Numbered from the stretch's first letter, positions 2,393-16,055 are shown. The stretch is DNA of 32,000 nt from Nostoc sp. PCC 7120 = FACHB-418 (GCF_000009705.1 NC_003272.1:1110001-1142000), one strand, 5' to 3'. Translations and numbers: made by a program. Notes: generated by a model from the letters alone, not told the origin.

Positions 2393-3934
2393 TCATAACT
2401 CACTTTTACCAAAAACCGTTTCATCATAGGTTTCGTGGTCTAGAATTGTAGGCATAATTACTTCACCTTCCAAGCTTTCAATCAAGCCGATATCGAGACT
2501 ATTTTGATTCCAAAACTTAGTTTTCTCTCTAGTGCTGGAAACACTAAAGTAAGATTGCTTGGATAACAAACTTTTCACTACTTGAAATTGTTCTAGAGAG
2601 AATAATGCACCGTGGAGTTGGGCAATTTCTCTTTCAGCCTCGGTGAGGATAACATCACATAAACAAGCATTAGTGAGATTGACAGTTTCCAAGCTGACAC
2701 CAGTGAGATTTGCGCCAGATAAGTTAGCACCAGCTAAATTTGCGTTATTTAAGTTAGCATCAGCTAAATTTGCATTCACCAATACAGCATCGCATAAATT
2801 TGCTTGTTCAAGATTTGCGCCAGTTAGGACGACTTGCGATAAAAATGCTCCTGAGAGGTTGATTTTAGCTAAAGATTGGGAGTAAATGCGCTTGATTAGA
2901 GCGTTACTTCCAGAAAAAGCGGCTTTAGCCAACAACATAATCATCGTTTCCGGGTAAAACTCACTGACATTGGCTGGATTACCACAAGGATAAAAAGAAA
3001 CGTGAATGTCCCGACTAATAGCGGCTAGTAATAAAAATACATTTATTCCCACATTCGTATTGACTTGCTCAACATTCACAAAATTTTGTAAGCTGTGAAA
3101 ATAAGGTAGTTCTTGATGGGCAATGCCTTCATCTAACCAACGTCCTTGACACCAACCGCGCCAAAACGATTCTAGTCGTTGTAACAAAATGGGCTTTTGT
3201 TGGGTTTGTAAAGCAGTTATGACTAATCCCTCAATTTCTGGCGTGATCATGCCGTAGCCTAGTAAATGGTAGAGATGCTGGGCAACACTGCTAGGAGCAT
3301 TCAAAATAAATGTTTCTGTTCCGTAAACATCTTCTTGGCACTGGGTGAGCATTTGCAGTTGGTTTGCTACAGCTTCAGCACAAAGATATTCGCCTATTTG
3401 TGAGTGGGAAAACTCTACTTTAATTGTTAATTGTGCTTTGTCAGTAGCTTGTGATGACTTACTGGTAAGACAATAACGGAAATATAAGGCCGGGAGAATG
3501 TTTGTATTTAATTCTTCAGTCAGGGTAACTTGATGACGATCGCCATGTAAAATTTTGAGAGCGATCGCCTGCATTTGTTCAATCAGGTCTTGAGGATGGT
3601 ATTCTCCTAGTAGATTGGTGATTGCTTCTGGTGTACGGTGAATATGAGCAGTTCCCGGACGTAATAGCATTGTCTTCATCCCCGCAGTCAACGGATACCC
3701 CAGCAACCATCGTTTTAAGCGAGAGTAAATTTCCCAATTTAGGGCAACCCTAGTATTTTTTTGCAATATCTCATCATCTAATAGTCCGTCGCGGTGGAAA
3801 ACCCCTAATACATATAGCATTAATGGTTGCCGTACTAAATGAGAGATTGCTGATAAGTGAGAGTTACTGGCAAATAATCCTGCTTGTTTTAGGAATGTAA
3901 AAAAAGTTTTGGGAAGTGGGTAAAGACTGGACAA
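2393..3934 (-). CDS. Pentapeptide-repeat C-terminal portion of a NACHT STAND protein (downstream fragment of a frameshifted gene)
   Basis: Residues about 350-430 form a long pentapeptide array (LSGAFLSQVVLTGANLEQANLCDAVLVNANLADANLNNANLAGANLSGANLTGVSLETVNLTNACLCDVIL). The ORF opens with TTG, not ATG, and overlaps the upstream NACHT ORF by 71 nt. Confidence 0.8.
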   Translation of the reverse strand: MSSLYPLPKTFFTFLKQAGLFASNSHLSAISHLVRQPLMLYVLGVFHRDGLLDDEILQKNTRVALNWEIYSRLKRWLLGYPLTAGMKTMLLRPGTAHIHRTPEAITNLLGEYHPQDLIEQMQAIALKILHGDRHQVTLTEELNTNILPALYFRYCLTSKSSQATDKAQLTIKVEFSHSQIGEYLCAEAVANQLQMLTQCQEDVYGTETFILNAPSSVAQHLYHLLGYGMITPEIEGLVITALQTQQKPILLQRLESFWRGWCQGRWLDEGIAHQELPYFHSLQNFVNVEQVNTNVGINVFLLLAAISRDIHVSFYPCGNPANVSEFYPETMIMLLAKAAFSGSNALIKRIYSQSLAKINLSGAFLSQVVLTGANLEQANLCDAVLVNANLADANLNNANLAGANLSGANLTGVSLETVNLTNACLCDVILTEAEREIAQLHGALFSLEQFQVVKSLLSKQSYFSVSSTREKTKFWNQNSLDIGLIESLEGEVIMPTILDHETYDETVFGKSEL

Positions 3935-5273
3935 ATGCCCATTGTTGAAACCATTGTTTTAGCTGGTTTATTTCTAAAGGTTGAATTTTAATGCGTCGCC
4001 ATTGTAGGGGGATTTCTGAAGTAATTTCCTCCACCGTTTGAGAGCGACTAGTCAACACAATTTTATGTTGTTCTTGGGACTGTAATTGTAGTAACTGTTG
4101 GATAAAAATTTTCTTAGCCCTATTTCCCTGATGAGAAGCAGGAAGTTCATCTAGCCCATCTAGTAATAAAACACACCGATTATTTGTTTGCTCTAACCAA
4201 GTAGACAAGTTGACATGAGCATTCAATGTAAAACCAGAGTTGAGAGTTTCTAGCAAACTTTTGCCATATTTAATATCCTGCAATCGAATCAGTATTGGCA
4301 TCCAATGAGGATAAAGTTTTAATGCTACTTCCGCCGCCCAAATCTGACAAAAACTGGATTTCCCATAACCAGGTTCTGACTCAATTACAGCAATAGTTTC
4401 TAAATCATTTAGTTGTTTCTCTACCCATGTTTTTAAATCAATTGACTGTTCACTATTAGGTTCTTGAGGTATACCAGATAAAGGAACATAAATATTTTTC
4501 AGGGCAAAATGTTCCATTAATAATGGTGTACTGAGAGTTTGTAGCAAACTAGCGCGATAATTCTCTTTATATAAGTCAATATTTAAGACATCTTCTGGAG
4601 TTCCTATACAGAAAAATTTTTGTAGTTGGGCTAAAGGTGCGGAATTTTGAGCAATGATTTTTAGCAGGTATCCAGGGAGGGAATTATCTAAACGCTGAGT
4701 TAATAATTTAGCTTCTAATTCTTCTGCACCATTAGCCATTAACCAAGCTACAGTAGCATGATTCATCTGTTGTACTAGTAAGGAATCGGCTACAGAAGAA
4801 AGTGCTTGTTCGGCTTGAGTATCAGTTAATTTACCAGGAGAGAGAGTTTTTAATAATCCTTGGAGTTGGGGATCTGAGATAATTATTGTGGCTTGTAAAG
4901 GTATTTTGGCACGATTTAACCAAGGTCTTTTTAACTGTTCTTCTTGGAGTAAAATCTGTTCTAACGCTAATAGGTAAGCAATTTGGAATGCTAACCAAGT
5001 ACCTTCATTGCGTTTGAGGGCTTTTTTTTGACTGAGGTTACGCAGAAGATGTTCGCTTAAGGAAGCAAGCACAGAAATTTCTTGTTCAGCCGTGCCTAAT
5101 GGTAATTGCAGTACTTCTGCTAACGTACAAATATCCAACGGCATCAGGCTTTTAAGTTCCATATCCTGAACAATACGATAGGCAATACCTGCCAGTTGCC
5201 CAGCAGCAAATGTTTTTATATGGCTGATTTCTATTTGGCGTTCTGCCAACCACTGCCTGAGACTGAGGTTCAT
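3864..5273 (-). CDS. NACHT-domain STAND NTPase, N-terminal helical domain plus P-loop module (upstream fragment of a frameshifted gene)
   Basis: The ORF starts with ATG at 5271-5273. Walker A is ESEPGYGKSSF (about 4355-4378) and Walker B is CVLLLDGLDEL, followed by KIVLTSRS. This is the typical NACHT order, preceded by about 280 aa of helical N-terminal region. Confidence 0.85.
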   Translation of the reverse strand: MNLSLRQWLAERQIEISHIKTFAAGQLAGIAYRIVQDMELKSLMPLDICTLAEVLQLPLGTAEQEISVLASLSEHLLRNLSQKKALKRNEGTWLAFQIAYLLALEQILLQEEQLKRPWLNRAKIPLQATIIISDPQLQGLLKTLSPGKLTDTQAEQALSSVADSLLVQQMNHATVAWLMANGAEELEAKLLTQRLDNSLPGYLLKIIAQNSAPLAQLQKFFCIGTPEDVLNIDLYKENYRASLLQTLSTPLLMEHFALKNIYVPLSGIPQEPNSEQSIDLKTWVEKQLNDLETIAVIESEPGYGKSSFCQIWAAEVALKLYPHWMPILIRLQDIKYGKSLLETLNSGFTLNAHVNLSTWLEQTNNRCVLLLDGLDELPASHQGNRAKKIFIQQLLQLQSQEQHKIVLTSRSQTVEEITSEIPLQWRRIKIQPLEINQLKQWFQQWAFVQSLPTSQNFFYIPKTSRIICQ

Positions 5274-7335: not shown

Positions 7336-7918
7336 CATCAAACTCACCTTGAATTACAGCTAAATCTTCTGGTGTGTTGCAATTGAATAATATCTCTGGG
7401 GTTGGTAGAGATAAAACTTGTACAGAATGATGTTGTAGCCATTGCTGAAAAGATCGCCCACCTTGATGGATAAACTCTAATAATTGCGGTAAACAGCGAC
7501 GGCGATAGAAACCACATAAAGGTTCCCAGCCTTTGGCGTGATGGGGTAAAGCAGCAATAGCTTCCTCTGGTACACTATCAAGATTAGCAGCCCATTCTTG
7601 CAAAACCTCAACCCGTAATTTAGGTAAATCGCAAGCTAAAAGTAACACCCACTCAGATTTTACCTCTGCTAACCCTTGAGCAAAGCCAATCAAAGGCCCC
7701 TGAGTCGCCGCTTCTGGAAGAAATTTGCACCCTGGTAAAAATAAATGCTCATAGCGTTCCGGCCAAGGGGTGACAATATAAACAGTATCAGCACAACTGG
7801 CGGCAATGTTACAGACAAATTGCAACAACGGCACACCTTGAACAGTTATCAAAGCTTTATCCTGTCCCATGCGGGAACTTTGACCACCTGCAAGGACGAT
7901 AGCAGTTAAGTTATTCAT
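7295..7918 (-). CDS. mobA: Molybdenum cofactor guanylyltransferase
   Basis: This 207-aa ORF starts with ATG. The N-terminal motif is AIVLAGGQSSRMGQDKAL, and length and layout are typical of MobA. The last 12 codons or so lie inside a repeat element. Confidence 0.9.
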   Translation of the reverse strand: MNNLTAIVLAGGQSSRMGQDKALITVQGVPLLQFVCNIAASCADTVYIVTPWPERYEHLFLPGCKFLPEAATQGPLIGFAQGLAEVKSEWVLLLACDLPKLRVEVLQEWAANLDSVPEEAIAALPHHAKGWEPLCGFYRRRCLPQLLEFIHQGGRSFQQWLQHHSVQVLSLPTPEILFNCNTPEDLAVIQGEFDDLSPNPSPTRRGA

Positions 7919-7960
7919 GAATTGAGTCGTTTGTTAGTCAGGTTAATGCGCGCTATAGGC

Positions 7961-8004
7961 GTTGACTGTTGACTGTTGACTGTTGACTGTTGACTGTTGA
8001 CTGT
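7961..8004. repeat. STRR heptamer tandem repeat (GTTGACT)x6, equivalent to CAACAGT (STRR3) on the other strand
   Basis: There are six perfect 7-nt units, gttgact x6 plus gt. Confidence 0.9.
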
Positions 8005-8031
8005 AGGGTGGGCAATGCCCACCACAATCAT
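8003..8031. repeat. Copy 1 (half element) of the dispersed palindromic repeat GGTGGGCAATGCCCACC
   Basis: The sequence is gtagGGTGGGCAATGCCCACCacaatcat. Related copies lie at 16056-16110, 19044-19139 and 27761-27840. Confidence 0.8.
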
Positions 8032-8100
8032 AAAATATTAGTATTAGTTATCAAAAAAATAAAATTAGTGACGAAACTCATTTTTTTAATTATCAAACAC

Positions 8101-8409
8101 TCAGTTTCGTGACCAAATCAATTGCATTTGCCACCACACGATTCAGTTTCGTGACCAAATCAATTGCATTTGCCACCACACGATTCAGTTTCGTGACCAA
8201 ATCAATTGCATTCGTCACCACACGAATTAGTTTCGTGACCAAATCAATTGCATTCGTCACCACACGATTCAGTTTCGTGACCAAATCAATTGTATTTGCC
8301 ACCACACGATTCAGTTTCGTGACCAAATCAATTGCATTTGCCACCACACGAATTAGTTTCGTGACCAAATCAATTGCATTTGCCACCACACGAATTAGTT
8401 TCGTGACCA
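8101..8409. repeat. Tandem array of a 42-bp unit (7 full copies plus a 15-nt partial) in the mobA / TPR-CHAT divergent intergenic region
   Basis: Units start at 8101, 8143, 8185, 8227, 8269, 8311, 8353 and 8395. The consensus is TCAGTTTCGTGACCAAATCAATTGCATTTGCCACCACACGAT, with only 1-4 substitutions per unit. There are no spacers. Confidence 0.95.
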
Positions 8410-8410
8410 T

Positions 8411-8443
8411 TAATTTTGAATTTTGAATTTTTAATTTTGAATT
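8411..8443. repeat. AATTCAAA-type short tandem repeat
   Basis: taattttgaattttgaatttttaattttgaatt belongs to the same family as 25325-25370. Confidence 0.6.
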
Positions 8444-8526
8444 GGAGCGAAGCGACTTGACACTCAGCAAGAATCCTCATCTTTCCGTCATAATGGGATT
8501 GTGTTATGTGATACTTGCACCTGCTC

Positions 8527-11500
8527 ATGAACGAACAGCGTTTACAAGCTTATTATCAGCTAATTCAAACCCTGCTAGATTGCCCTAGTGGGGAAGAACC
8601 GGAGATATTAGCAGCGAATACAGAATTGCTAGATGCTGACTTTGTGCAGGTGGTAGGATTAGCAGCAGAGCATTTTGCCCAGCAGGGAGAGGAAAATAGA
8701 GCCGAGTGGTTGAGAAACTTAGCCGCATATCTCACCACCCCAGAAACTCCCGCCATTAGTGAAGCAGATATAGAGACTTACTTGCCATTTATTTTAGAGG
8801 TATTGCGAACAACCGCAGACAGCAACGGCGATGCTCAAGTAATTTACCCGTTGCTGAGAGCTAATACCGATAAACTGGATCGTATCTTTGCAGAATTATT
8901 GCGCCGATGGGCAACAAATACCCTAGAGAAAGCAAAACCAGATAGAGCAACATTCATCGCCGCAACTATTGGTAATTTTAGCAATCTGATTAACGATTTT
9001 CCTTTGGGTAGCAAAGCCAACAACATGGAAATTGGTATCGCTGGTTATGAAATCGCCCTCACTATATATACCCGCACTGATTTTCCTGAACAATGGGCAA
9101 CGACGCAAAATAATCTGGGGAATGCTTACTTATACAGAATATTAGGAAACAGAGGGGAGAATCTGGAGGCGGCGATCGCTGCTTATTCTGCGGCTCTGGA
9201 AGTCAGAACCCGCACTGATTTTCCTGTAGATTGGGCAATGACGCAAAATAATCTGGGGAATGCTCACTTATACAGAATATTAGGAAACAAAGGGGAGAAT
9301 CTGGAGGCGGCGATCGCTGCTTATTCTGCGGCTCTGGAAGTCAGAACCCGCACTGATTTTCCTGTAGATTGGGCAATGACGCAAAATAATCTGGCGACTG
9401 CTTACTTATACAGAATATTAGGAAACAGAGGGGAGAATCTGGAAAATGCTATCGCTGCTTTTTCTGCGGCTCTGGAAGTTTATACCCGCACTGATTTTCC
9501 TAAACAATGGGCTGGAACGCAAAATAATCTGGGAGAGGCTTACCGTAACAGAATATTAGGAAACAAAGGGGAGAATCTGGAGAAGGCGATCGCGGCTTAT
9601 TCTGCGGCTCTGGAAGTTTATACCCGCACTGATTTTCCTGAACAATGGGCTGGAACGCAAAATAATCTGGGAAATGCTTACTCTGAAAGAATATTAGGAA
9701 ACAGAGGGGAGAATCTGGAGGCGGCGATCGCTGCTTATTCTGCGGCTCTGGAAGTCAGAACCCGCACTGATTTTCCTGAACAATGGGCAACGACGCAAAA
9801 TAATCTGGGGACTGCTTACTCTGAAAGAATATTAGGAAACAGAGGGGAGAATCTGGAGGCGGCGATCGCTGCTTATTCTGCGGCTCTGGAAGTTTATACC
9901 CGCACTGATTTTCCTGTAGATTGGGCAATGACGCAAAATAATCTGGGGAATGCTTACGGTAACAGAATATTAGGAAACAGAGGGGAGAATCTGGAGGCGG
10001 CGATCGCTGCTTATTCTGCGGCTCTGGAAGTTTATACCCGCACTGATTTTCCTCAAAATCATGCAGAAACTTTGTTAAATCTCGGTATCTTATACCAAGA
10101 AGAGAAACAATTTAATTTAGCTTACGATACCTTTGCCCAAGCAATACCAACCGTCGAAGCTTTACGGGGTGAAATTAATGCAGGTGATAATTTAGGTGAA
10201 GAAGGCAAGCGCAAACAAGCAGAAGAATGGAATAAACTTTATAGACGCATGATAGAAGTTTGCCTAGCATTGGGCAAAGACACTGAAGCGATAGAATATA
10301 TTGAACGCAGCAAAACCCGCTATTTAGTAGAACTATTAAGCAAAGCAGACTCAATCAATCTAGAGAATCTACCTGAGATAGACAGCAATATCCGTTTTGC
10401 AGAAATTAAAAATCTTTTAGACGATGAAACAGTTATTATTCAATGGTATATATTTACTGATTGTTTTCGTGCCTTCATCATCAGCAAAAACCATCAACCA
10501 ATCATTTGGCAATCAGCCTCAGAAGATTTAGACAATTTAAAAAACTGGACTGATAATTATCTGCAAATCTACGGTGAAGATAAACAAAAGTGGCGATATC
10601 AGCTAAACGAGCAACTAACCCAACTAACTCAAACCCTCCACCTCAATCAGATAATTTCTCTCATTCCCTCCCAATACAAAAAACTGATTGTCATTCCCCA
10701 TCGTTATTTACATTTATTCCCACTCCATGCTGTACCCCTAGCTAATAACAACTCATCACAACCAGAATATTTATTTGATAGATTTCCTCATGGCGTAAGT
10801 TATGCACCAAGTAATCAACTTTTACGATTTACTCAACGGCGAGTGCGAAGATTAGCCAACTTAGAATTAAATCCCTTCAGTAACTTATTTGCCATTCAAA
10901 ACCCCACTAACGATTTAGCCTTCACCGATATCGAAGTCGAAACCATAGCCGCAGATTTTCAACCCCAACAAGTCCTGAAACATCACCAAGCCACCAAAGC
11001 CGCCTTAACAGCAACACCAACAGATGAAACCCTCAGCAATTCCCAATGGCTGCATTTCTCTTGTCACGGTTACTTTAACTTCCGTTTCCCCTTAAAATCT
11101 GGTTTACAGTTAGCCGATGCAGTAACCTCTACCATTCCCAGCACCATCAACTCATCACGCTACCTGAGAATTGACAACGAAAAAGCTATTGATTTAGATA
11201 AATGTCTCACCCTGGAAGATATCTTTCAATTAAATTTAAATAACTGTCGTCTCGTCTGTCTCTCCGCTTGCGAAACTGGTTTTATTGACTATACAAATAA
11301 CAGCGATGAATATATAGGTTTGGCAAGTGGTTTTATGCGTGCTGGTGGAACTAACATTATTAGTAGTTTATGGGCAGTTAGCGACTTTCACACAGCTTTA
11401 CTAATGATTAAATTTTATGAAAACTTACCACTTTATCAATATAATGTGTCCTTAGCCTTGAACCATACCCAAACATGGTTACGCCGAGCAACGCAATCAC

Positions 11501-11649
11501 AAATTATAGACTGGGTGCAAAGTAAAACCAATATGCAAAACACACAACAGCAAAAAATCATTGGCTTTTTACAACAATATAAACCTGAACAACAACCATT
11601 TAAAAGACCAGAATTTTGGGCTGCTTTTTCTGCTATTTCTCCAGTTTAG
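8527..11649 (+). CDS. TPR-repeat / CHAT-domain (caspase-like) protease
   Basis: The track ORF opens at TTG 8515, but ATG at 8527 gives MNEQRLQAYYQLIQTLLDCPSGEEPEIL, a typical N-terminus of cyanobacterial TPR-CHAT proteins. It has seven to eight 46-aa TPR-like repeats. The C-terminal CHAT domain carries a catalytic-type His in WLHFSCHGYF (11065-11067) and Cys in LVCLSACETG (11269-11271). Confidence 0.9.
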   Translation: MNEQRLQAYYQLIQTLLDCPSGEEPEILAANTELLDADFVQVVGLAAEHFAQQGEENRAEWLRNLAAYLTTPETPAISEADIETYLPFILEVLRTTADSNGDAQVIYPLLRANTDKLDRIFAELLRRWATNTLEKAKPDRATFIAATIGNFSNLINDFPLGSKANNMEIGIAGYEIALTIYTRTDFPEQWATTQNNLGNAYLYRILGNRGENLEAAIAAYSAALEVRTRTDFPVDWAMTQNNLGNAHLYRILGNKGENLEAAIAAYSAALEVRTRTDFPVDWAMTQNNLATAYLYRILGNRGENLENAIAAFSAALEVYTRTDFPKQWAGTQNNLGEAYRNRILGNKGENLEKAIAAYSAALEVYTRTDFPEQWAGTQNNLGNAYSERILGNRGENLEAAIAAYSAALEVRTRTDFPEQWATTQNNLGTAYSERILGNRGENLEAAIAAYSAALEVYTRTDFPVDWAMTQNNLGNAYGNRILGNRGENLEAAIAAYSAALEVYTRTDFPQNHAETLLNLGILYQEEKQFNLAYDTFAQAIPTVEALRGEINAGDNLGEEGKRKQAEEWNKLYRRMIEVCLALGKDTEAIEYIERSKTRYLVELLSKADSINLENLPEIDSNIRFAEIKNLLDDETVIIQWYIFTDCFRAFIISKNHQPIIWQSASEDLDNLKNWTDNYLQIYGEDKQKWRYQLNEQLTQLTQTLHLNQIISLIPSQYKKLIVIPHRYLHLFPLHAVPLANNNSSQPEYLFDRFPHGVSYAPSNQLLRFTQRRVRRLANLELNPFSNLFAIQNPTNDLAFTDIEVETIAADFQPQQVLKHHQATKAALTATPTDETLSNSQWLHFSCHGYFNFRFPLKSGLQLADAVTSTIPSTINSSRYLRIDNEKAIDLDKCLTLEDIFQLNLNNCRLVCLSACETGFIDYTNNSDEYIGLASGFMRAGGTNIISSLWAVSDFHTALLMIKFYENLPLYQYNVSLALNHTQTWLRRATQSQIIDWVQSKTNMQNTQQQKIIGFLQQYKPEQQPFKRPEFWAAFSAISPV
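9027..10080 (+). repeat. Intragenic tandem array of a 138-bp (46-codon) unit encoding the TPR-like repeats
   Basis: The anchor cccgcactgattttcct occurs at 9071, 9209, 9347, 9485, 9623, 9761, 9899 and 10037, exactly 138 bp apart. The units are near-identical at nucleotide level. Confidence 0.95.
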
Positions 11650-11695
11650 TTTTTATCTTCTCAATAGAATAAAGATTAAATTAGTACCAAATTAA

Positions 11696-11724
11696 ACGCA
11701 GATGAACGCAGATGGACGCAGATA
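11696..11724. repeat. Three tandem copies of a 10-nt unit (ACGCAGATGR)
   Basis: acgcagatga acgcagatgg acgcagata lies in the spacer after the CHAT gene. Confidence 0.7.
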
Positions 11725-11818
11725 AATTAATGGATTTTATAATTATGTGTAATTTCAGATAAAATTGAAATGAATTGTCAAGTATATTCAACAATTAACC
11801 AACTCAAAAACAAAAGCT

Positions 11819-12163
11819 ATGGAACCAGATAAACTCATTCAAGCATTTACCCAAGTTGTGAGAAACCAAGATTATGTTTTCTCGCCAGAAGCTATTGTAG
11901 CCATCCCCGAATTACTAAACGAACTTGCTCAATTAGAAACCCAACCACCAGATTTATTTGCAGAAGCCATTCGCCAATGGTATCTCGACTATGAAGATGT
12001 GAGAGACGCTGTATTAATTGAAGAAAGAGAAATTGAGAAAGTCAGCAAAAGTAAGCCAGAAATCCAAGAAAATACTCAAGAAAATCGCTATCGAGTAGTA
12101 CAAGATGAACTCAAAAGACTACAAGAAACAAAAACAAGCAACAACCAAACCAAGCAACCATGA
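11819..12163 (+). CDS. Hypothetical small acidic / coiled-coil protein (114 aa)
   Basis: The ORF starts with ATG, and its TGA overlaps the ATG of the next ORF (ATGA at 12160-12163). The N-terminal half is acidic and the C-terminal half is charged and helical-looking (EEREIEKVSKSKPEIQENTQENRYRVVQDELKRLQE). I recognise no family. Confidence 0.55.
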   Translation: MEPDKLIQAFTQVVRNQDYVFSPEAIVAIPELLNELAQLETQPPDLFAEAIRQWYLDYEDVRDAVLIEEREIEKVSKSKPEIQENTQENRYRVVQDELKRLQETKTSNNQTKQP

Positions 12164-13605
12164 AAATTTATGCACCAAACATTCATTTATTCGCTTTTCA
12201 ATTGTACAAAAGTGCTAGTAATGACATAAACAATTCATCGACAGATAAAGACTTCCTTTGGTATCAGGCTAACGCCATAGCTAGCGCAACTTTACACCAA
12301 AATCTACAACTCCATCAGCGTCTTGATGTCAATAAAAACCCAGATAACCCCCGTGTCGATTTACTAAAAGACTCAGAAGTAATCGATGATAACTATGCTG
12401 TCGATTTGCAGGGTAACATTTCTCTCAACCAAACCCAAGACTTATTAATTAAAGGCTTTGCTCATCCCTTAAGAATATATGATAGTTACAGTTTATGGCT
12501 AAATCTCCGTCGTCCAGAAAAGGAAAATAACAATCAGACAGATGATGTAGACATTACTTTTTTACGGCAATTAAATCAAAATAATTGTTTCACAGTTCCC
12601 GCAAATCCTTTATTTCTCGGTCAAACTCTGCTAATTACTGGCTGGTTAACAGGCGCAAAAGACAGACAAATTATCCAGCAAATAGCCAATGAGTGTTTAA
12701 AGTCTTTCTTTCCTGATAACTATCTCCTACCACCATTCAACCGCCAAGGCGAGTTATTTGGTAGCCCAATTTTTGAATACGGTTTATTTAGCCAATTAAA
12801 TAATTATCAACACGTTCTAATATGGTTATTTACTGACAAACAAGCAGACAGTAAATTTAATCAATGCTATCAAGAATTACTAGATTTATTTTTCTTCCGT
12901 ACCAAAGCAGTTAAAGCTTATAAAGATAGTCGTAAAATATATCAAGAACTAGATTCAGCCTATAGAAAAGTCGAAGATACAATTGATAAAGTTCCCAAAT
13001 TAGATGAGACCCAATATGATAATAAAATCAACTTAAGTAACTTAAAAAACCAGTTAAAAGCTTTACCCCAAATATCATTAACATACACCCGCCTACTACG
13101 AAACTTAGAAGAATATCAAAATACAATCGCTATCAATACTTATAATTACAACGAGAGACTACAACAAATTAAAAGCATCTTCGCCAATGAAGATATCAGC
13201 TTTCTAGAAATATTTAGCCAAAAAAACTGCGCTTATTTCCAACAACAAATTAATGGCGACTTGGGTTATTTTCGTCACGGCTCAGAATTGTTAGGTAAAG
13301 CCATAGACACAATTCGCGGTATTGTGGAAATAGAACAAGCAGAGCGCGATGTAGAACAAGCAAAACGCGATCGCACTCTAGAAACCACAATCCAAATAAT
13401 AGGTATCGGCTTTGGTGGTGGTGCAATAGCTTCCGGTGTCATCGTTTCCCACATCGACAAAATCAACCAACCCTTAGCCGCATTATCTCCTGATAACCAA
13501 CCCCATCCCTTTTTCGCCTCGTTAATTCTCAGTTTTCTCGCAGTCTTACTCTTTAGCGGCGTAGGCTGGTTCATAAGCTGGTTAATAACGAAATGGCGAA
13601 ACTAG
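12160..13605 (+). CDS. Hypothetical membrane-anchored protein (481 aa): unknown N-terminal domain, long coiled-coil-like region, C-terminal TM hairpin
   Basis: The ORF starts with ATG and is a long open frame in AT-rich DNA. It has two C-terminal hydrophobic helices: TIQIIGIGFGGGAIASGVIVSHI, and FFASLILSFLAVLLFSGVGWFISWLITKW. I recognise no family. Confidence 0.7.
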   Translation: MKIYAPNIHLFAFQLYKSASNDINNSSTDKDFLWYQANAIASATLHQNLQLHQRLDVNKNPDNPRVDLLKDSEVIDDNYAVDLQGNISLNQTQDLLIKGFAHPLRIYDSYSLWLNLRRPEKENNNQTDDVDITFLRQLNQNNCFTVPANPLFLGQTLLITGWLTGAKDRQIIQQIANECLKSFFPDNYLLPPFNRQGELFGSPIFEYGLFSQLNNYQHVLIWLFTDKQADSKFNQCYQELLDLFFFRTKAVKAYKDSRKIYQELDSAYRKVEDTIDKVPKLDETQYDNKINLSNLKNQLKALPQISLTYTRLLRNLEEYQNTIAINTYNYNERLQQIKSIFANEDISFLEIFSQKNCAYFQQQINGDLGYFRHGSELLGKAIDTIRGIVEIEQAERDVEQAKRDRTLETTIQIIGIGFGGGAIASGVIVSHIDKINQPLAALSPDNQPHPFFASLILSFLAVLLFSGVGWFISWLITKWRN

Positions 13606-13778
13606 TCATTTACACCCTTTCTCCCCTATCCCCTATTTTGGCTCTGTTGTACTTGTCGTAATAACATTTCCAAACTTGCAGCTGATGGCAGACACTTCAA
13701 ACCTTGGCAAACTAAACCTAAACTATAGTGGGGTAAATCAGTCTAAAGTCCAGAAAAGAGACTTAACGGGAAAAGTCA

Positions 13779-13840
13779 GGTACCCTACGGGTACTCCGGC
13801 GGAGAACTCGTAGAGTAGCAAGCTATGGAGAGGGGTTTTT
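13779..13840. repeat. Inverted copy of the small dispersed repeat seen at 7199-7236
   Basis: The reverse complement reads aaaaacccctctccatagcttgct...gggtacc. It shares the 23-nt core and the gggtacc end with 7199-7236, with an internal insertion. Confidence 0.65.
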
Positions 13841-13881
13841 CAGACTGTTTTAACAAAAACCTAATAAATATTCATACCGAC

Positions 13882-15951
13882 TTATTTATCTTGAGGCAAC
13901 TCTACAACCAACTGAGAATTACCATTTGGCGATAGTGGTGGGGTTGTAGTTGGTAGTGGTGCAACTTCACCTGTTTTATTAGTCTGATTCCACAAAATCA
14001 TCGACAGCAACCCATCAACTAAGCCATTAGTGCTGCCATTAGTACCACCAACCAGGATATCAGGAATTAAACGGACATTGCGATCGCCGATAATCTGCAT
14101 CATCTGCATTGCGGTATAGCCTTGTATACCCAATGCTTGCACACCATGACTGTAAGTTTCCGCTTTCGCGTTACCTGTTGCCCGGATACCTTCAGCTTCA
14201 GCCATTGCTCGAAGTTTTGTTCCCTCTGCTTCACCGTTCGCTTGCTTAATTTGGGCTTGGGCTTTTAGTTCAGCGATTTGCACACTCTGTTCTGATGTCA
14301 CCATTTCTCGTTGGATATCAGCCAGGGCTGTTTCCCGCACAAGCTGTTGACGTTGCGTTTGCGCCATCTGCTGAACTTCGTAGGTTTTGCGTTCTTCCTC
14401 AGCAATTTTCCGGTCTGTTTGTGTCTGCATCAACGACGCTGGCGGTTGAATATCCCCAATTAAGGTATCAATCGCTTGCACATCATAAGTCCGCAACGCT
14501 GCTTTGATATATTCCGATGCTTCTACTTGCCGTTCACTCCGGGCATTCAAGAAGTCCAGCACTGTGTAATCTTGCGCCGAGTTGCGGAAATAGTTGCCAA
14601 TACTTGGTTCTAAGACATTATCAACCAAATTTTGCATAGAACCAACACGAGAAATTACCTTAGGCGCATCCAAAGCCCCGACGTGGATGATTTGGGATAC
14701 TTCCAAATCAAAGGCAAACCCATCTTTAGAACGCACTGTCAAAGCTTCTAAATTTGCATCATATTTATGGCGTTCAGTCCGTCCTGACCAGTTCAAAACG
14801 ATGTTAGTAGTCGGCACTAACTCCACTTTCATGATGCGCGTGTTGAGTGGGTGCTTACCCGGATACAACGGCTCGACCCATACGCCCTTATGACCAGGAT
14901 TTACCAAGTTACCGTGGGTGAAAGCAGCACCGCTCACATCTTCTTGAGCTTTACCGACAAAAGAAATCACCACACCCACATAACCGATGGGAATTTCCGT
15001 CATTGGCACTTGCTCAACATTGACAAGCCAGGGATTGAGATTCCAAGAACCCGAAAGCAGAATTTGCTCTTGTAGACCCCGTCGCCCGCCCCCATCTAGA
15101 AACTTCTGACCATTTTGGAAATTATCATGTCCAGTAATCACTGCCCCAGCAATTTCACCCACAGTAATGGGTATCCCATCCAAGGTAGTAACAATACCTA
15201 CCTTGTCAGAGGCAACAGTATACACTTGTAACTGTTCGGGACTCATCCCATGGCTACTAGCATTTGCTGCCATGATGACTTTAAACAAGGCAGTATTTAT
15301 ACGGTAAGTACCTGCCGTGAGAAATCCCATTTGCCGTCCCTTTTCACCACCATTGATGAGGAATTTTCGGGCATCTTGGAAGTTATCACAATCTACGATT
15401 TTACCTAAAATCCTCTCTGGCGGGTTTGATGCACCATCAGCCGCCACAATAACGGCGATTTCACCTTGAGGCACAACAACTACAGATTCTTTGCGTACAG
15501 AATACTGCCAAGGCCAGTAACCCCAATGCCAACCAGGCGCGAGGGTATCTGCTTGTAAACCTGCTTCACCATTGAGAGCAATCAACTGCCCAGCCGGCAA
15601 ACCCTTTCCAGAAAACGTAAATTTTCTGACGACGACACCAACTTCACGCTCGCCAATAACAACTAAACCACCAAAAAACAGAGGGACAAATATCACCAGA
15701 CCGCCAACTAGCACAACGGGAATGAGTACAAAAGGATCAACCCCCGCAGCCTGATACTGAACAACAGAAGGTTTTGTCGGCTCTACTGGAACTGACGCTG
15801 AAGTAATTTCTGTAGCCGTGGATGTTTTTATGTTATTGGCATAAGCAGAATTAATCCCGCCAGCTAACGCCAGTGCAGCTATTAATGGAGTTGTAAAGCG
15901 AGCTAATTTATTTTTTTTAGTCTTACCAAAGAGAAATGAAAAGCTTTTCAT
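13882..15951 (-). CDS. Flotillin-like SPFH/Band 7 family protein
   Basis: The likely start is ATG at 15949-15951 (MKSFSFLFGK...), since the track start at 15972 is TTG. It has an N-terminal hydrophobic segment plus a TM helix (VLIPVVLVGGLVIFVPLFFGGLVVIG). An SPFH-type domain follows (EREVGVVVRKF...), then an Ala/Glu/Gln-rich flotillin coiled coil (QIAELKAQAQIKQANGEAEGTKLRAMAEAEGIRA). Confidence 0.9.
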   Translation of the reverse strand: MKSFSFLFGKTKKNKLARFTTPLIAALALAGGINSAYANNIKTSTATEITSASVPVEPTKPSVVQYQAAGVDPFVLIPVVLVGGLVIFVPLFFGGLVVIGEREVGVVVRKFTFSGKGLPAGQLIALNGEAGLQADTLAPGWHWGYWPWQYSVRKESVVVVPQGEIAVIVAADGASNPPERILGKIVDCDNFQDARKFLINGGEKGRQMGFLTAGTYRINTALFKVIMAANASSHGMSPEQLQVYTVASDKVGIVTTLDGIPITVGEIAGAVITGHDNFQNGQKFLDGGGRRGLQEQILLSGSWNLNPWLVNVEQVPMTEIPIGYVGVVISFVGKAQEDVSGAAFTHGNLVNPGHKGVWVEPLYPGKHPLNTRIMKVELVPTTNIVLNWSGRTERHKYDANLEALTVRSKDGFAFDLEVSQIIHVGALDAPKVISRVGSMQNLVDNVLEPSIGNYFRNSAQDYTVLDFLNARSERQVEASEYIKAALRTYDVQAIDTLIGDIQPPASLMQTQTDRKIAEEERKTYEVQQMAQTQRQQLVRETALADIQREMVTSEQSVQIAELKAQAQIKQANGEAEGTKLRAMAEAEGIRATGNAKAETYSHGVQALGIQGYTAMQMMQIIGDRNVRLIPDILVGGTNGSTNGLVDGLLSMILWNQTNKTGEVAPLPTTTPPLSPNGNSQLVVELPQDK

Positions 15952-16055
15952 AATTTGCGCCCTTCTGGGCAACTAATCATATACGCTATCACTTCAACTC
16001 TCTTAAGGCTGATTTCTTAAACTTGGTGTAATTTTTTCTAGTTGACAAGCAATCA

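Follow-up and report, generated by a model that had tools for sequence, protein, structure and literature searches.

A candidate module of a TPR-CHAT protease, a small acidic protein and a CorA-like membrane protein in filamentous cyanobacteria

We analysed a window of 32,000 nucleotides (nt) of Nostoc sp. PCC 7120 = FACHB-418 DNA (NC_003272.1:1110001-1142000; positions are counted from the start of the window) and the relatives of its genes in other genomes. On the plus strand the window carries a gene for a TPR-CHAT caspase-like protease, followed by genes for a small acidic helical protein and for a membrane protein that resembles CorA in architecture (Table 1); the last two are called the 114-aa and 481-aa proteins after their lengths in amino acids (aa). 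We are highly confident that the three genes work together as a single functional module, whatever its nature. With moderate confidence, and by analogy with gasdermins and their proteases, we propose that the protease may control the CorA-like putative channel and its small partner, and with them membrane depolarisation. No description of this module was found; it is not a gasdermin system, not a type III CorA, and not Craspase.

Linkage of the three genes

From species-representative genomes, 80 loci encoding relatives of the 481-aa protein were taken and searched with the window proteins by tblastn and by iterated profile search of all open reading frames (ORFs); 4 of these loci were too short to judge. 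In 62 of the 76 informative loci the genes for a CHAT protein, a small protein and a homolog of the 481-aa protein follow each other on one strand and in that order, and five further loci (L040, L052, L063, L072, L077) contain decayed CHAT/TPR remnants. An earlier, sequence-only reading of the window had taken the two downstream proteins for the substrate or effector of the protease, and a neighbourhood survey had been set in advance as a test. The survey demonstrates that the pair is overwhelmingly found beside caspase-type proteases. It belongs to no housekeeping family, and its deep and plasmid-borne relatives lie beside CHAT or C14-nSTAND1 proteins.

The outer neighbours of the cassette in the window (a DUF3685 response regulator, MobA, a Band 7 protein and a 495-aa ORF) were observed in 0 of the 80 loci. 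As the cassette order is kept without conserved flanks, ordinary synteny does not explain it. Identity to the window proteins is correlated across the loci, with Spearman coefficients of 0.93 for the 481-aa against the 114-aa protein and 0.86 for the 481-aa protein against the CHAT domain. Several genomes (Scytonema HK-05, Scytonema PCC 10023, Brasilonema CT11 and UFV-L1) hold two or three paralogous cassettes each, and the three genes of such cassettes are equally diverged. Thus the cassette duplicates and moves as a unit. Judged from genome sequences, the linkage is as good as comparative genomics allows.

All three window proteins are identical to their deposited counterparts (Table 1) and to entries from Anabaena FACHB-709 and Trichormus variabilis. 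The deposited protease, annotated as 'CHAT domain-containing protein', is the form starting at the ATG at 8527. The protease gene and the 114-aa gene are separated by 169 bp (11650-11818), in which a consensus scan found no terminator, and the stop codon of the 114-aa gene shares the tetranucleotide ATGA (12160-12163) with the start codon of the 481-aa gene. The sequence-only reading had placed the ORFs, with their spacing and overlap, correctly, and the same holds for the array of 46-aa repeats, the catalytic His and Cys and the membrane hairpin at the C-terminus. The overlap had been taken to imply translational coupling and fixed stoichiometry. It is present here, but occurs in only 25 of 67 loci; elsewhere the two genes are separated by as much as a few hundred nt and, in a single outlier, by about 1.2 kb. 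Hence such coupling is not general.

Table 1. Genes of the cassette, their parts and the upstream array in the window
Feature	Position	Strand	Extent	Remarks
TPR-CHAT caspase-like protease gene	8527..11649	+	1040 aa	BAB72920; in-frame TTG also at 8515
N-terminal helical region of protease	8527..9036	+	aa 1-170	Conserved among cassette proteases
46-aa TPR-like repeat array	9067..10053	+	7.2 copies	Tandem Repeats Finder (TRF): 138-bp unit, 90% matches
CHAT domain	10615..11634	+	aa 697-1036	Pfam; His847 11065-11067, Cys915 11269-11271
Small acidic helical protein gene	11819..12163	+	114 aa	BAB72921
CorA-like membrane protein gene	12160..13605	+	481 aa	BAB72922
Cytoplasmic alpha/beta domain	12160-12834	+	aa 1-225	AlphaFold2 (AF2) model
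Long helices	12838-13386	+	aa 227-409	AF2; last one continues into first transmembrane (TM) segment
TM1	13387-13455	+	aa 410-432	Hydropathy, AF2
TM2	13507-13593	+	aa 450-478	After short loop; basic C-terminus beyond
Tandem array, 42-bp unit	8101..8409	.	7.4 copies	TRF: 95% matches; 118 bp upstream of CHAT start codon

The CHAT domain of the protease, which belongs to the caspase-like (clan CD) peptidases, is recognised by Pfam (PF12770, 152.6 bits against a cut-off of 24, E = 2e-44), as are its repeats (TPR_12, E = 8.8e-24). The dyad is intact: His847 (codon CAC, within WLHFSCHGYF) and Cys915 (codon TGC, within LSACETG) are kept in all 34 full-length cassette proteases that were aligned and, given this retention, the cassette protease looks active. 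Queries with aa 1-170 (tblastn, jackhmmer) recover the N-termini of partner CHAT proteins. A domain shared by this N-terminus and the 114-aa protein was considered and ruled out (hhalign probability 1.2%). Because the repeat number varies, the lengths of the 34 proteases spread from 731 to 1481 aa.

The copy number of the TPR-like array differs even between near-identical strains or assemblies, which encode forms of 1040, 948 and 805 aa (L082, 7073-9490); the 948-aa form falls in the same protein cluster as the 1040-aa protease. These differences could be true variation or assembly collapse. Many draft contigs end about 2-3 kb upstream of the 481-aa gene, within the repeat-rich protease gene, which fits assembly breaks at repeats.

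The sole solved structure found by the protease sequence is Csx29, and this match is marginal (E = 0.0016). The only meaningful NCBIfam match is a partial one to the Csx29 model NF041237, with 71.5 bits against a cut-off of 300. By these comparisons the protein is to be classed as a CHAT protease and not as an ortholog of Csx29. PADLOC-DB v2 yields a weak match of 18.9 bits, below membership.

The association extends to distant relatives. One of them (P0360, profile E about 1e-66) has a TPR-CHAT protein of 1481 aa followed by proteins of 119 aa and 511 aa; in another, a TPR-CHAT gene precedes the gene of a DUF2887 protein with a 114-like C-terminus, followed by the membrane gene. Other members from metagenomes and metagenome-assembled genomes have the small ORF and the membrane gene only, once adjoining a HigB toxin. 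Cyanobacterial plasmids hold copies at 23-37% identity. On the Nostoc C052 plasmid the order CHAT-111-507 is enclosed by the insertion sequences (IS) IS630 and IS110, the p4 plasmid of Planktothrix contains CHAT-130-471, and a Pseudanabaena plasmid has a permuted version, where the 114-481 pair with a 4-nt overlap is followed by two CHAT genes.

Two plasmids of Tolypothrix PCC 7712 demonstrate that the type of protease may be swapped. On the first, the pair is flanked by a Peptidase_C14-nSTAND1-trypsin protein and a CHAT-TPR protein, with an additional caspase-family gene farther out. On the second, the pair is divergent from an adjoining caspase-nSTAND1-WD40 protein, whose caspase domain was assigned from the record annotation and a PADLOC 'caspase' match. 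To judge by these gene orders, a constant two-gene partner is combined with interchangeable caspase-type proteases bearing repeats or STAND NTPases. Defence genes, known or candidate, are found near several copies in other genomes: a PDC-M31 pair (AriA/AbiLi-like) lies directly upstream of the Coleofasciculus copy, AbiLi/PDC-M38 adjoins a Microcoleus copy, and PDC-S49 is on the Planktothrix plasmid.

The membrane protein and its small partner

A profile search of 1.84 billion representatives assigned to the 481-aa family 961 clusters at 50% identity (E <=0.001), 442 of them at E <=1e-30. Taxonomically labelled members (named hits, genome loci and plasmids) are all cyanobacterial and mostly filamentous; the 961 representatives themselves carry no taxonomy. 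The claim that neither downstream protein could be placed in a family holds, as nothing above threshold was observed for either in Pfam, NCBIfam or PADLOC.

Hydropathy of the 481-aa protein indicates hydrophobic stretches at about 410-432 and 447-478, which are modelled as a helical hairpin. The AF2 model, made from an alignment of 37 sequences, has a predicted local distance difference score (pLDDT) of 83.7 and a predicted template-modelling score (pTM) of 0.76. Its helices span residues 227-276 and 292-340, and an 86-residue helix (347-432) then runs straight into TM1; TM2 is at about 450-480. When this model was compared with the PDB by Foldseek, ranks 1-13 were all taken by CorA of T. maritima and C. 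jejuni and by human MRS2, with Vibrio ZntB and the cytosolic domain of E. coli CorA at ranks 18-32. The matches to the CorA family have E-values down to 1.7e-4 and probabilities of 0.69-1.0, and the alignments cover whole chains. The structure searches proposed earlier for both proteins thus gave an answer for one: the 481-aa protein matches CorA/MRS2, but no fold match was found for the 114-aa protein.

The 481-aa protein has its structural elements in the order known from CorA, MRS2 and ZntB (the MIT superfamily): an alpha/beta domain at the N-terminus, then long helices with a stalk helix that runs on into TM1, a short loop on the outside, TM2, and a basic C-terminus. It differs in being about 130-160 residues longer than CorA and in its gene context, which is protease-linked and not housekeeping. 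TM1 is glycine-rich (GIGFGGGAIASG), with G415 and G419 invariant. The GMN motif is absent from the protein and from the family consensus, and the stretch following TM1 (...ASGVIVSHIDKINQPL) also lacks it. Because the architecture, as modelled, resembles that of a CorA channel, the idea of a membrane effector gains weight.

A profile search of the PDB with the 481-aa family gave only a marginal match to the LemA helical bundle (E = 0.005), which was taken as coiled-coil similarity. The family member P0317 (672 aa) has an N-terminal extension of 120 aa ahead of the conserved YAPN start. This extension is unrelated to the 114-aa protein; it may reflect a true fusion or a start codon called wrongly.

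The 114-aa protein is acidic (23 D/E against 14 K/R, counted by hand on the translation). Long hydrophobic stretches are absent from it, and it is modelled as a protein of the soluble type, without a TM segment. Its AF2 model (pLDDT 79.5) is predicted to be all-helical, with five helices and a low-confidence linker at aa 77-86 leading into the nearly invariant motif ENTxENRYR (aa 84-92). All of its 92 homologs are without a name. In the PDB, nothing below E = 1 was found by Foldseek with the model, and the sequence search was also empty; nor is the protein related to the 481-aa family (hhalign probability 0.3%).

A small ORF homologous to the 114-aa gene precedes even distant members of the membrane family. 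Most of the small proteins encoded at distant loci are recognisably homologous (profile E from 4e-13 to 1e-3), and the remaining ones match by layout only, in which a Pro/charged linker joins a helical head to a terminal helix. Fusions of the 114-aa and 481-aa proteins were found in 0 of 147 family representatives. The sole fusion seen joins a 114-like domain to DUF2887. It is a 382-aa protein (L091, 3567-4715) with a weak sigma-70 region 4-like segment and the 114-like domain at its C-terminus, and its gene is placed between those of the TPR-CHAT and membrane proteins.

Proposed mechanism and alternatives

Bacterial CHAT and caspase-like proteases repeatedly adjoin their substrates; for example, the type III-E TPR-CHAT protein Csx29 cleaves Csx30. 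Fusions of TPR or STAND modules with caspase domains are a hallmark of conflict and programmed-cell-death systems in multicellular cyanobacteria. In gasdermin systems, a constant partner is combined with interchangeable caspase-type proteases with repeats (Johnson et al., bioRxiv 10.1101/2021.06.07.447441). The cassette is similar in that a constant membrane-acting partner adjoins CHAT or Peptidase C14 proteases fused to TPR, WD40 or NACHT/STAND modules, and by analogy it may share the logic in which proteolysis frees a membrane-permeabilising activity. However, the 481-aa protein has no gasdermin match in Pfam or Foldseek, in line with the sequence-only reading; gasdermins are soluble, lipid-inserting beta-sheet formers, whereas this is a CorA-like integral membrane protein with two TM segments, and the cassette always has a second constant small protein. 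Adjacency to a caspase-like protease amounts to gasdermin-like logic, not to gasdermin membership.

CorA of type III-B CRISPR systems is a divergent CorA with an unusual N-terminal domain, an antiviral membrane effector with experimental support, modelled as a pentameric channel (Chi et al., PMC10600005). Its activator is SAM-AMP, which Cas10 produces, and its partner is NrN or a SAM-AMP lyase (PMC10600005). Being an antiviral effector, it sets a precedent for this fold as an executioner. The 481-aa protein is likewise a divergent CorA-type membrane protein, but no sequence relationship between the two was established, and activation by SAM-AMP and the NrN or lyase partners are the features in which CRISPR CorA differs. 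Craspase is similar to the cassette in that Csx29 also combines TPR and CHAT and its substrate gene is adjacent. The cassette has, however, a different repeat array, of a 46-aa unit, and no Cas7-11/gRAMP, CRISPR array, Csx30, Csx31 or sigma factor accompanies it. As noted earlier from the sequence, there are no cas genes in the 32-kb window, and TRF found no CRISPR-like array in 7900-13900, the part scanned for repeats.

In EACC1-caspase pairs, which are enriched among multicellular bacteria, a constant membrane component is combined with a caspase of variable domain composition (Kaur et al. 2020, PMC7159879). EACC1 itself, found mainly in actinobacteria, is small, has a single TM segment and is encoded 5' of the caspase (PMC7159879). 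The common feature, compared by description, is a constant membrane-associated component together with a caspase-superfamily protein with variable extra domains; in the cassette, however, the protease gene comes first, the small protein lacks a TM segment, and the two-TM protein is encoded 3'. A 2020 survey of conflict systems contains neither 'CorA' nor 'CHAT', the accessible part of a 2021 survey has no match to the cassette, and it goes unmentioned in a 2026 survey of STAND proteins associated with defence (PMC13581612).

The proposed scheme is that of a three-gene conflict module of filamentous cyanobacteria, of the abortive-infection or programmed-cell-death type; the sensing, cleavage, direction of the signal, channel activity and phenotype that we infer would be as follows. 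The first gene would supply a cytoplasmic CHAT protease, whose rapidly varying TPR-like array may be a sensor or a scaffold. The second and third would supply the constant pair of the small acidic helical protein and the CorA-like channel protein of the inner membrane. In the resting state the oligomeric channel would be held shut by the small protein, by the N-terminal domain of the 481-aa protein, or by both. Once a trigger is sensed by the repeat array (in other versions, by the STAND module), CHAT would cleave the small partner, a cytoplasmic loop in the channel protein, or both. Cleavage might take place in the conserved, disordered linker (aa 77-92) of the 114-aa protein or in a low-confidence loop (aa 277-291) of the 481-aa protein. 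The open channel would leak ions and depolarise the membrane, and the affected cell of the filament would halt growth or die.

A number of observations weigh against this scheme. The likeness of the modelled 481-aa protein to CorA is one of architecture and is structural only. Although the Foldseek alignments are end to end, TM-scores for the CorA-family matches are only 0.13-0.39, low values that a different splay of the long helices in the monomer model would account for. Pfam CorA (PF01544) matches neither the window protein nor any of 71 family members. When the family was compared by hhalign with E. coli CorA or with a shallow CorA alignment, probabilities were 8.5-18%; the alignment is co-linear over 270 columns, with TM1 on TM1 and TM2 on TM2, and sets IRGIVEIEQAE against GFINIEQNR of CorA at the end of the stalk. 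A homology search with E. coli CorA gave only sequences of >=87% identity, too uniform for a diverse profile. The 481-aa protein is thus a probable remote relative of CorA, short of demonstrated membership. Further, no cleavage site could be predicted; the PADLOC-DB v2 models match neither the 114-aa nor the 481-aa protein; no phage homologs were found by tblastn, and there was no significant fold match in BFVD. The immediate neighbours of the cassette in the window are mostly ordinary metabolic and transport genes, and the probable locus tags alr0961-0965 were in no paper found.

Solo genes weigh in the same direction. The expectation of a protease-linked pair holds in most loci, but an obligate dependence on the protease is weakened by eight loci (L049, L064, L066, L073, L074, L075, L076, L080), mainly from Oscillatoriales, where an intact 481-aa homolog has neither a protease nor a small partner. 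They come from Microcoleus, Oscillatoria, Halomicronema and an unclassified cyanobacterium, and one distant metagenomic member is also solo. The 481-aa protein can therefore persist without a protease in cis. Four of these loci (L064, L073, L074, L075; Microcoleus and Oscillatoria) have the same conserved housekeeping neighbourhood; in L049 the solo gene is preceded by an IS element, and L066, L076 and L080 are in other contexts. The remnant locus L072 shares the Oscillatoriales neighbourhood and keeps a truncated CHAT N-terminal fragment upstream, which suggests that the solo state arose by secondary loss.

In the shared neighbourhood of the four loci, a RecR-like gene is upstream of the solo 481-aa homolog and a RecQ-like helicase gene is downstream. 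In L080, a gene for an 1811-aa protein with a two-partner-secretion (TPS) domain and a CHAT domain (9479-14911, minus strand) is located downstream of the Microcoleus solo homolog; its CHAT architecture is different, and its nearness is probably coincidental.

The main alternative is that the signal runs the opposite way. The CorA-like protein and its small partner would then sit in the membrane as a sensor or anchor, and damage to the envelope, a flux of ions or the entry of phage DNA might be what they respond to. They would recruit or activate the TPR-CHAT protease, which would be the true effector and cleave cellular or viral proteins. The same linkage data would be observed, as they indicate no direction, and the N-terminal domains of CorA proteins are ligand- or ion-sensing gates. 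A membrane sensor with a caspase executor was proposed for EACC1 pairs (Kaur et al. 2020, PMC7159879), caspase-like proteases are reported to be broad-specificity immune effectors in their own right (bioRxiv 10.1101/2024.10.24.620036), and the CRISPR-associated CorA binds SAM-AMP (PMC10600005). Nevertheless, we consider such wiring unlikely, as the proteases bear large, fast-varying arrays of their own (TPR, WD40) and some have STAND NTPase modules. In NLR-like (nucleotide-binding leucine-rich-repeat) systems, repeat arrays and STAND modules are the sensing parts. Besides, the pattern of a constant pair and a variable protease is that of gasdermins, where the constant partner executes, and the solo 481-aa genes would be sensors without an output. 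On the other hand, the pair might be a regulated cation channel serving filament physiology or development, with CHAT as its post-translational regulator; stress-induced or developmental cell death, necridia, hormogonium release and ion homeostasis are examples. CorA-family proteins are normally ion transporters, the labelled family is confined to mostly filamentous cyanobacteria, the window copy is among ordinary genes, and the Oscillatoriales solo clade has a stable housekeeping neighbourhood. This role appears distinctly improbable, however, given a distribution that is patchy and multi-copy, with several paralogous cassettes per genome and decayed and IS-disrupted copies, the presence of copies on conjugative or mobilizable plasmids and beside candidate defence genes, the swapping of protease types including STAND-NTPase fusions, and the absence of GMN. 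Such patchiness, plasmid location, defence neighbours, protease swaps and loss of GMN are typical of conflict systems and not of core physiology.

The helical hairpin raises the question of an alpha pore-forming toxin of the ClyA/Hbl/Nhe type, inserted by conformational change; in that case, too, the 481-aa protein would be an effector that permeabilises membranes. Weak similarities of this kind do exist: NCBIfam NheC matches aa 306-404 (E = 3e-5), single family members touch Bacillus_HBL (E = 0.012) and SipB of type III secretion (E = 0.019), and the ClyA pore 6mrt is in the Foldseek list (E = 0.32). All of them are far under thresholds, NheC with 23.4 bits against a cut-off of 420, and the 481-aa protein has an alpha/beta N-terminal domain and a C-terminal TM hairpin, with CorA/MRS2 at the top of the Foldseek ranking. 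ClyA-family toxins are all-alpha, with the hydrophobic element in mid-sequence. The toxin reading is therefore given little credence. Finally, the three genes might have no functional link and be mere neighbours in Nostocaceae, as a weak promoter-like match in the 169-bp spacer (11736-11765, 9 of 12 positions in a consensus scan) might suggest. The neighbourhood survey contradicts this: 62 of 76 loci keep the order with no conservation of the flanks, the genes of paralogous cassettes co-diverge, and the linkage is seen again on plasmids and with caspase-type proteases of other kinds; we regard chance proximity as hardly credible.

A further-reaching version of the protease-controlled scheme is more tentative, and we lean somewhat against it. 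The cassette might encode a new type of executioner, a CorA-derived channel without the Mg-selectivity motif, kept shut by a small partner and opened by a caspase-like protease fused to a sensor (CHAT, or C14-STAND), with a 21/42-bp array upstream (described below) as a fourth conserved element controlling expression or sensing. The same doubtful proposal would make the module a non-gasdermin analogue of pyroptosis in multicellular cyanobacteria. To our knowledge, protease-triggered membrane killing in bacteria is known mainly via gasdermins, and CorA-type effectors have been described only in type III CRISPR, as accessories gated by nucleotides. If true, the scheme would provide caspase-type immunity with a second, structurally unrelated executioner, and ion channels would be recruitable as protease-controlled death effectors. 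Anabaena/Nostoc PCC 7120 would then be a genetically tractable model of cell-autonomous suicide in a multicellular filament. The pair is a candidate new effector family within protease-coupled membrane effectors, and since Pfam, NCBIfam and PADLOC have no entry for it, it escapes present annotators of defence systems.

Upstream arrays and neighbouring genes

The region between mobA and the protease gene contains a tandem array with a 42-bp unit. TRF was applied to all 1.19 Mb of locus DNA, and arrays with a period of 21 or 42 bp and a length of >=84 bp were retained. There are 30 such arrays, and 21 of them are within 1.3 kb upstream of the start of a cassette protease, a zone that makes up 3.9% of the sequence (binomial p = 3e-23). 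Such an array is present at 21 of 38 loci with a visible 5' end of the protease gene, namely in the window and in L002, L006, L009, L014, L017, L018, L020, L021, L024, L027, L038, L043-L045, L047, L053, L056, L058, L063 and L070. As a few such arrays are also found elsewhere, they are a general cyanobacterial repeat class strongly enriched at the cassette.

Between clades the units have no sequence relationship, but their period is constant. Many units are dyad-symmetric, for example CGAGT-N7-ACTCG and CTCATTAATGAG. Coding was ruled out as a consistent explanation, as part of the arrays lack an open frame, and others can be read in both orientations and give unrelated peptides. No Rfam match was observed for the arrays. 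The RNA-fold z-score of -5.8 is inflated by the repetition itself. Tentatively, the array of the window may regulate the cassette or form its leader; conceivable roles are an operator array, a phase-preserving promoter spacer, or a structured leader.

Short tandem repeats are located at 7961-8004, 8412-8443 and 11695-11723, and one of them falls in the spacer between the CHAT and 114-aa genes. Heptamers flank the 42-bp array (GTTGACT, 6.3 copies, and AATTTTG, 4.6 copies), and in the spacer AACGCAGATG is repeated 2.9 times. The flanking heptamers recall the heptamer repeats of heterocystous cyanobacteria.

A NACHT-pentapeptide gene is found 3 kb upstream of the cassette in the window. This NLR-like gene (NNH3-NACHT-pentapeptide) is split into two overlapping ORFs on the minus strand (2393-3934 and 3864-5273). 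The split is also present in the PCC 7120 = FACHB-418 assembly, and NIES-23 (L083) has a single ORF of 959 aa. It is probably a frameshift pseudogene or a strain polymorphism of a conflict-type gene. On the other side, convergent with the cassette, there is a gene for a 696-aa SPFH/Band 7 (flotillin-like) membrane protein (13882-15972, minus strand). It was considered as a member of the cassette and ruled out, as it is conserved with the cassette in 0 other loci.

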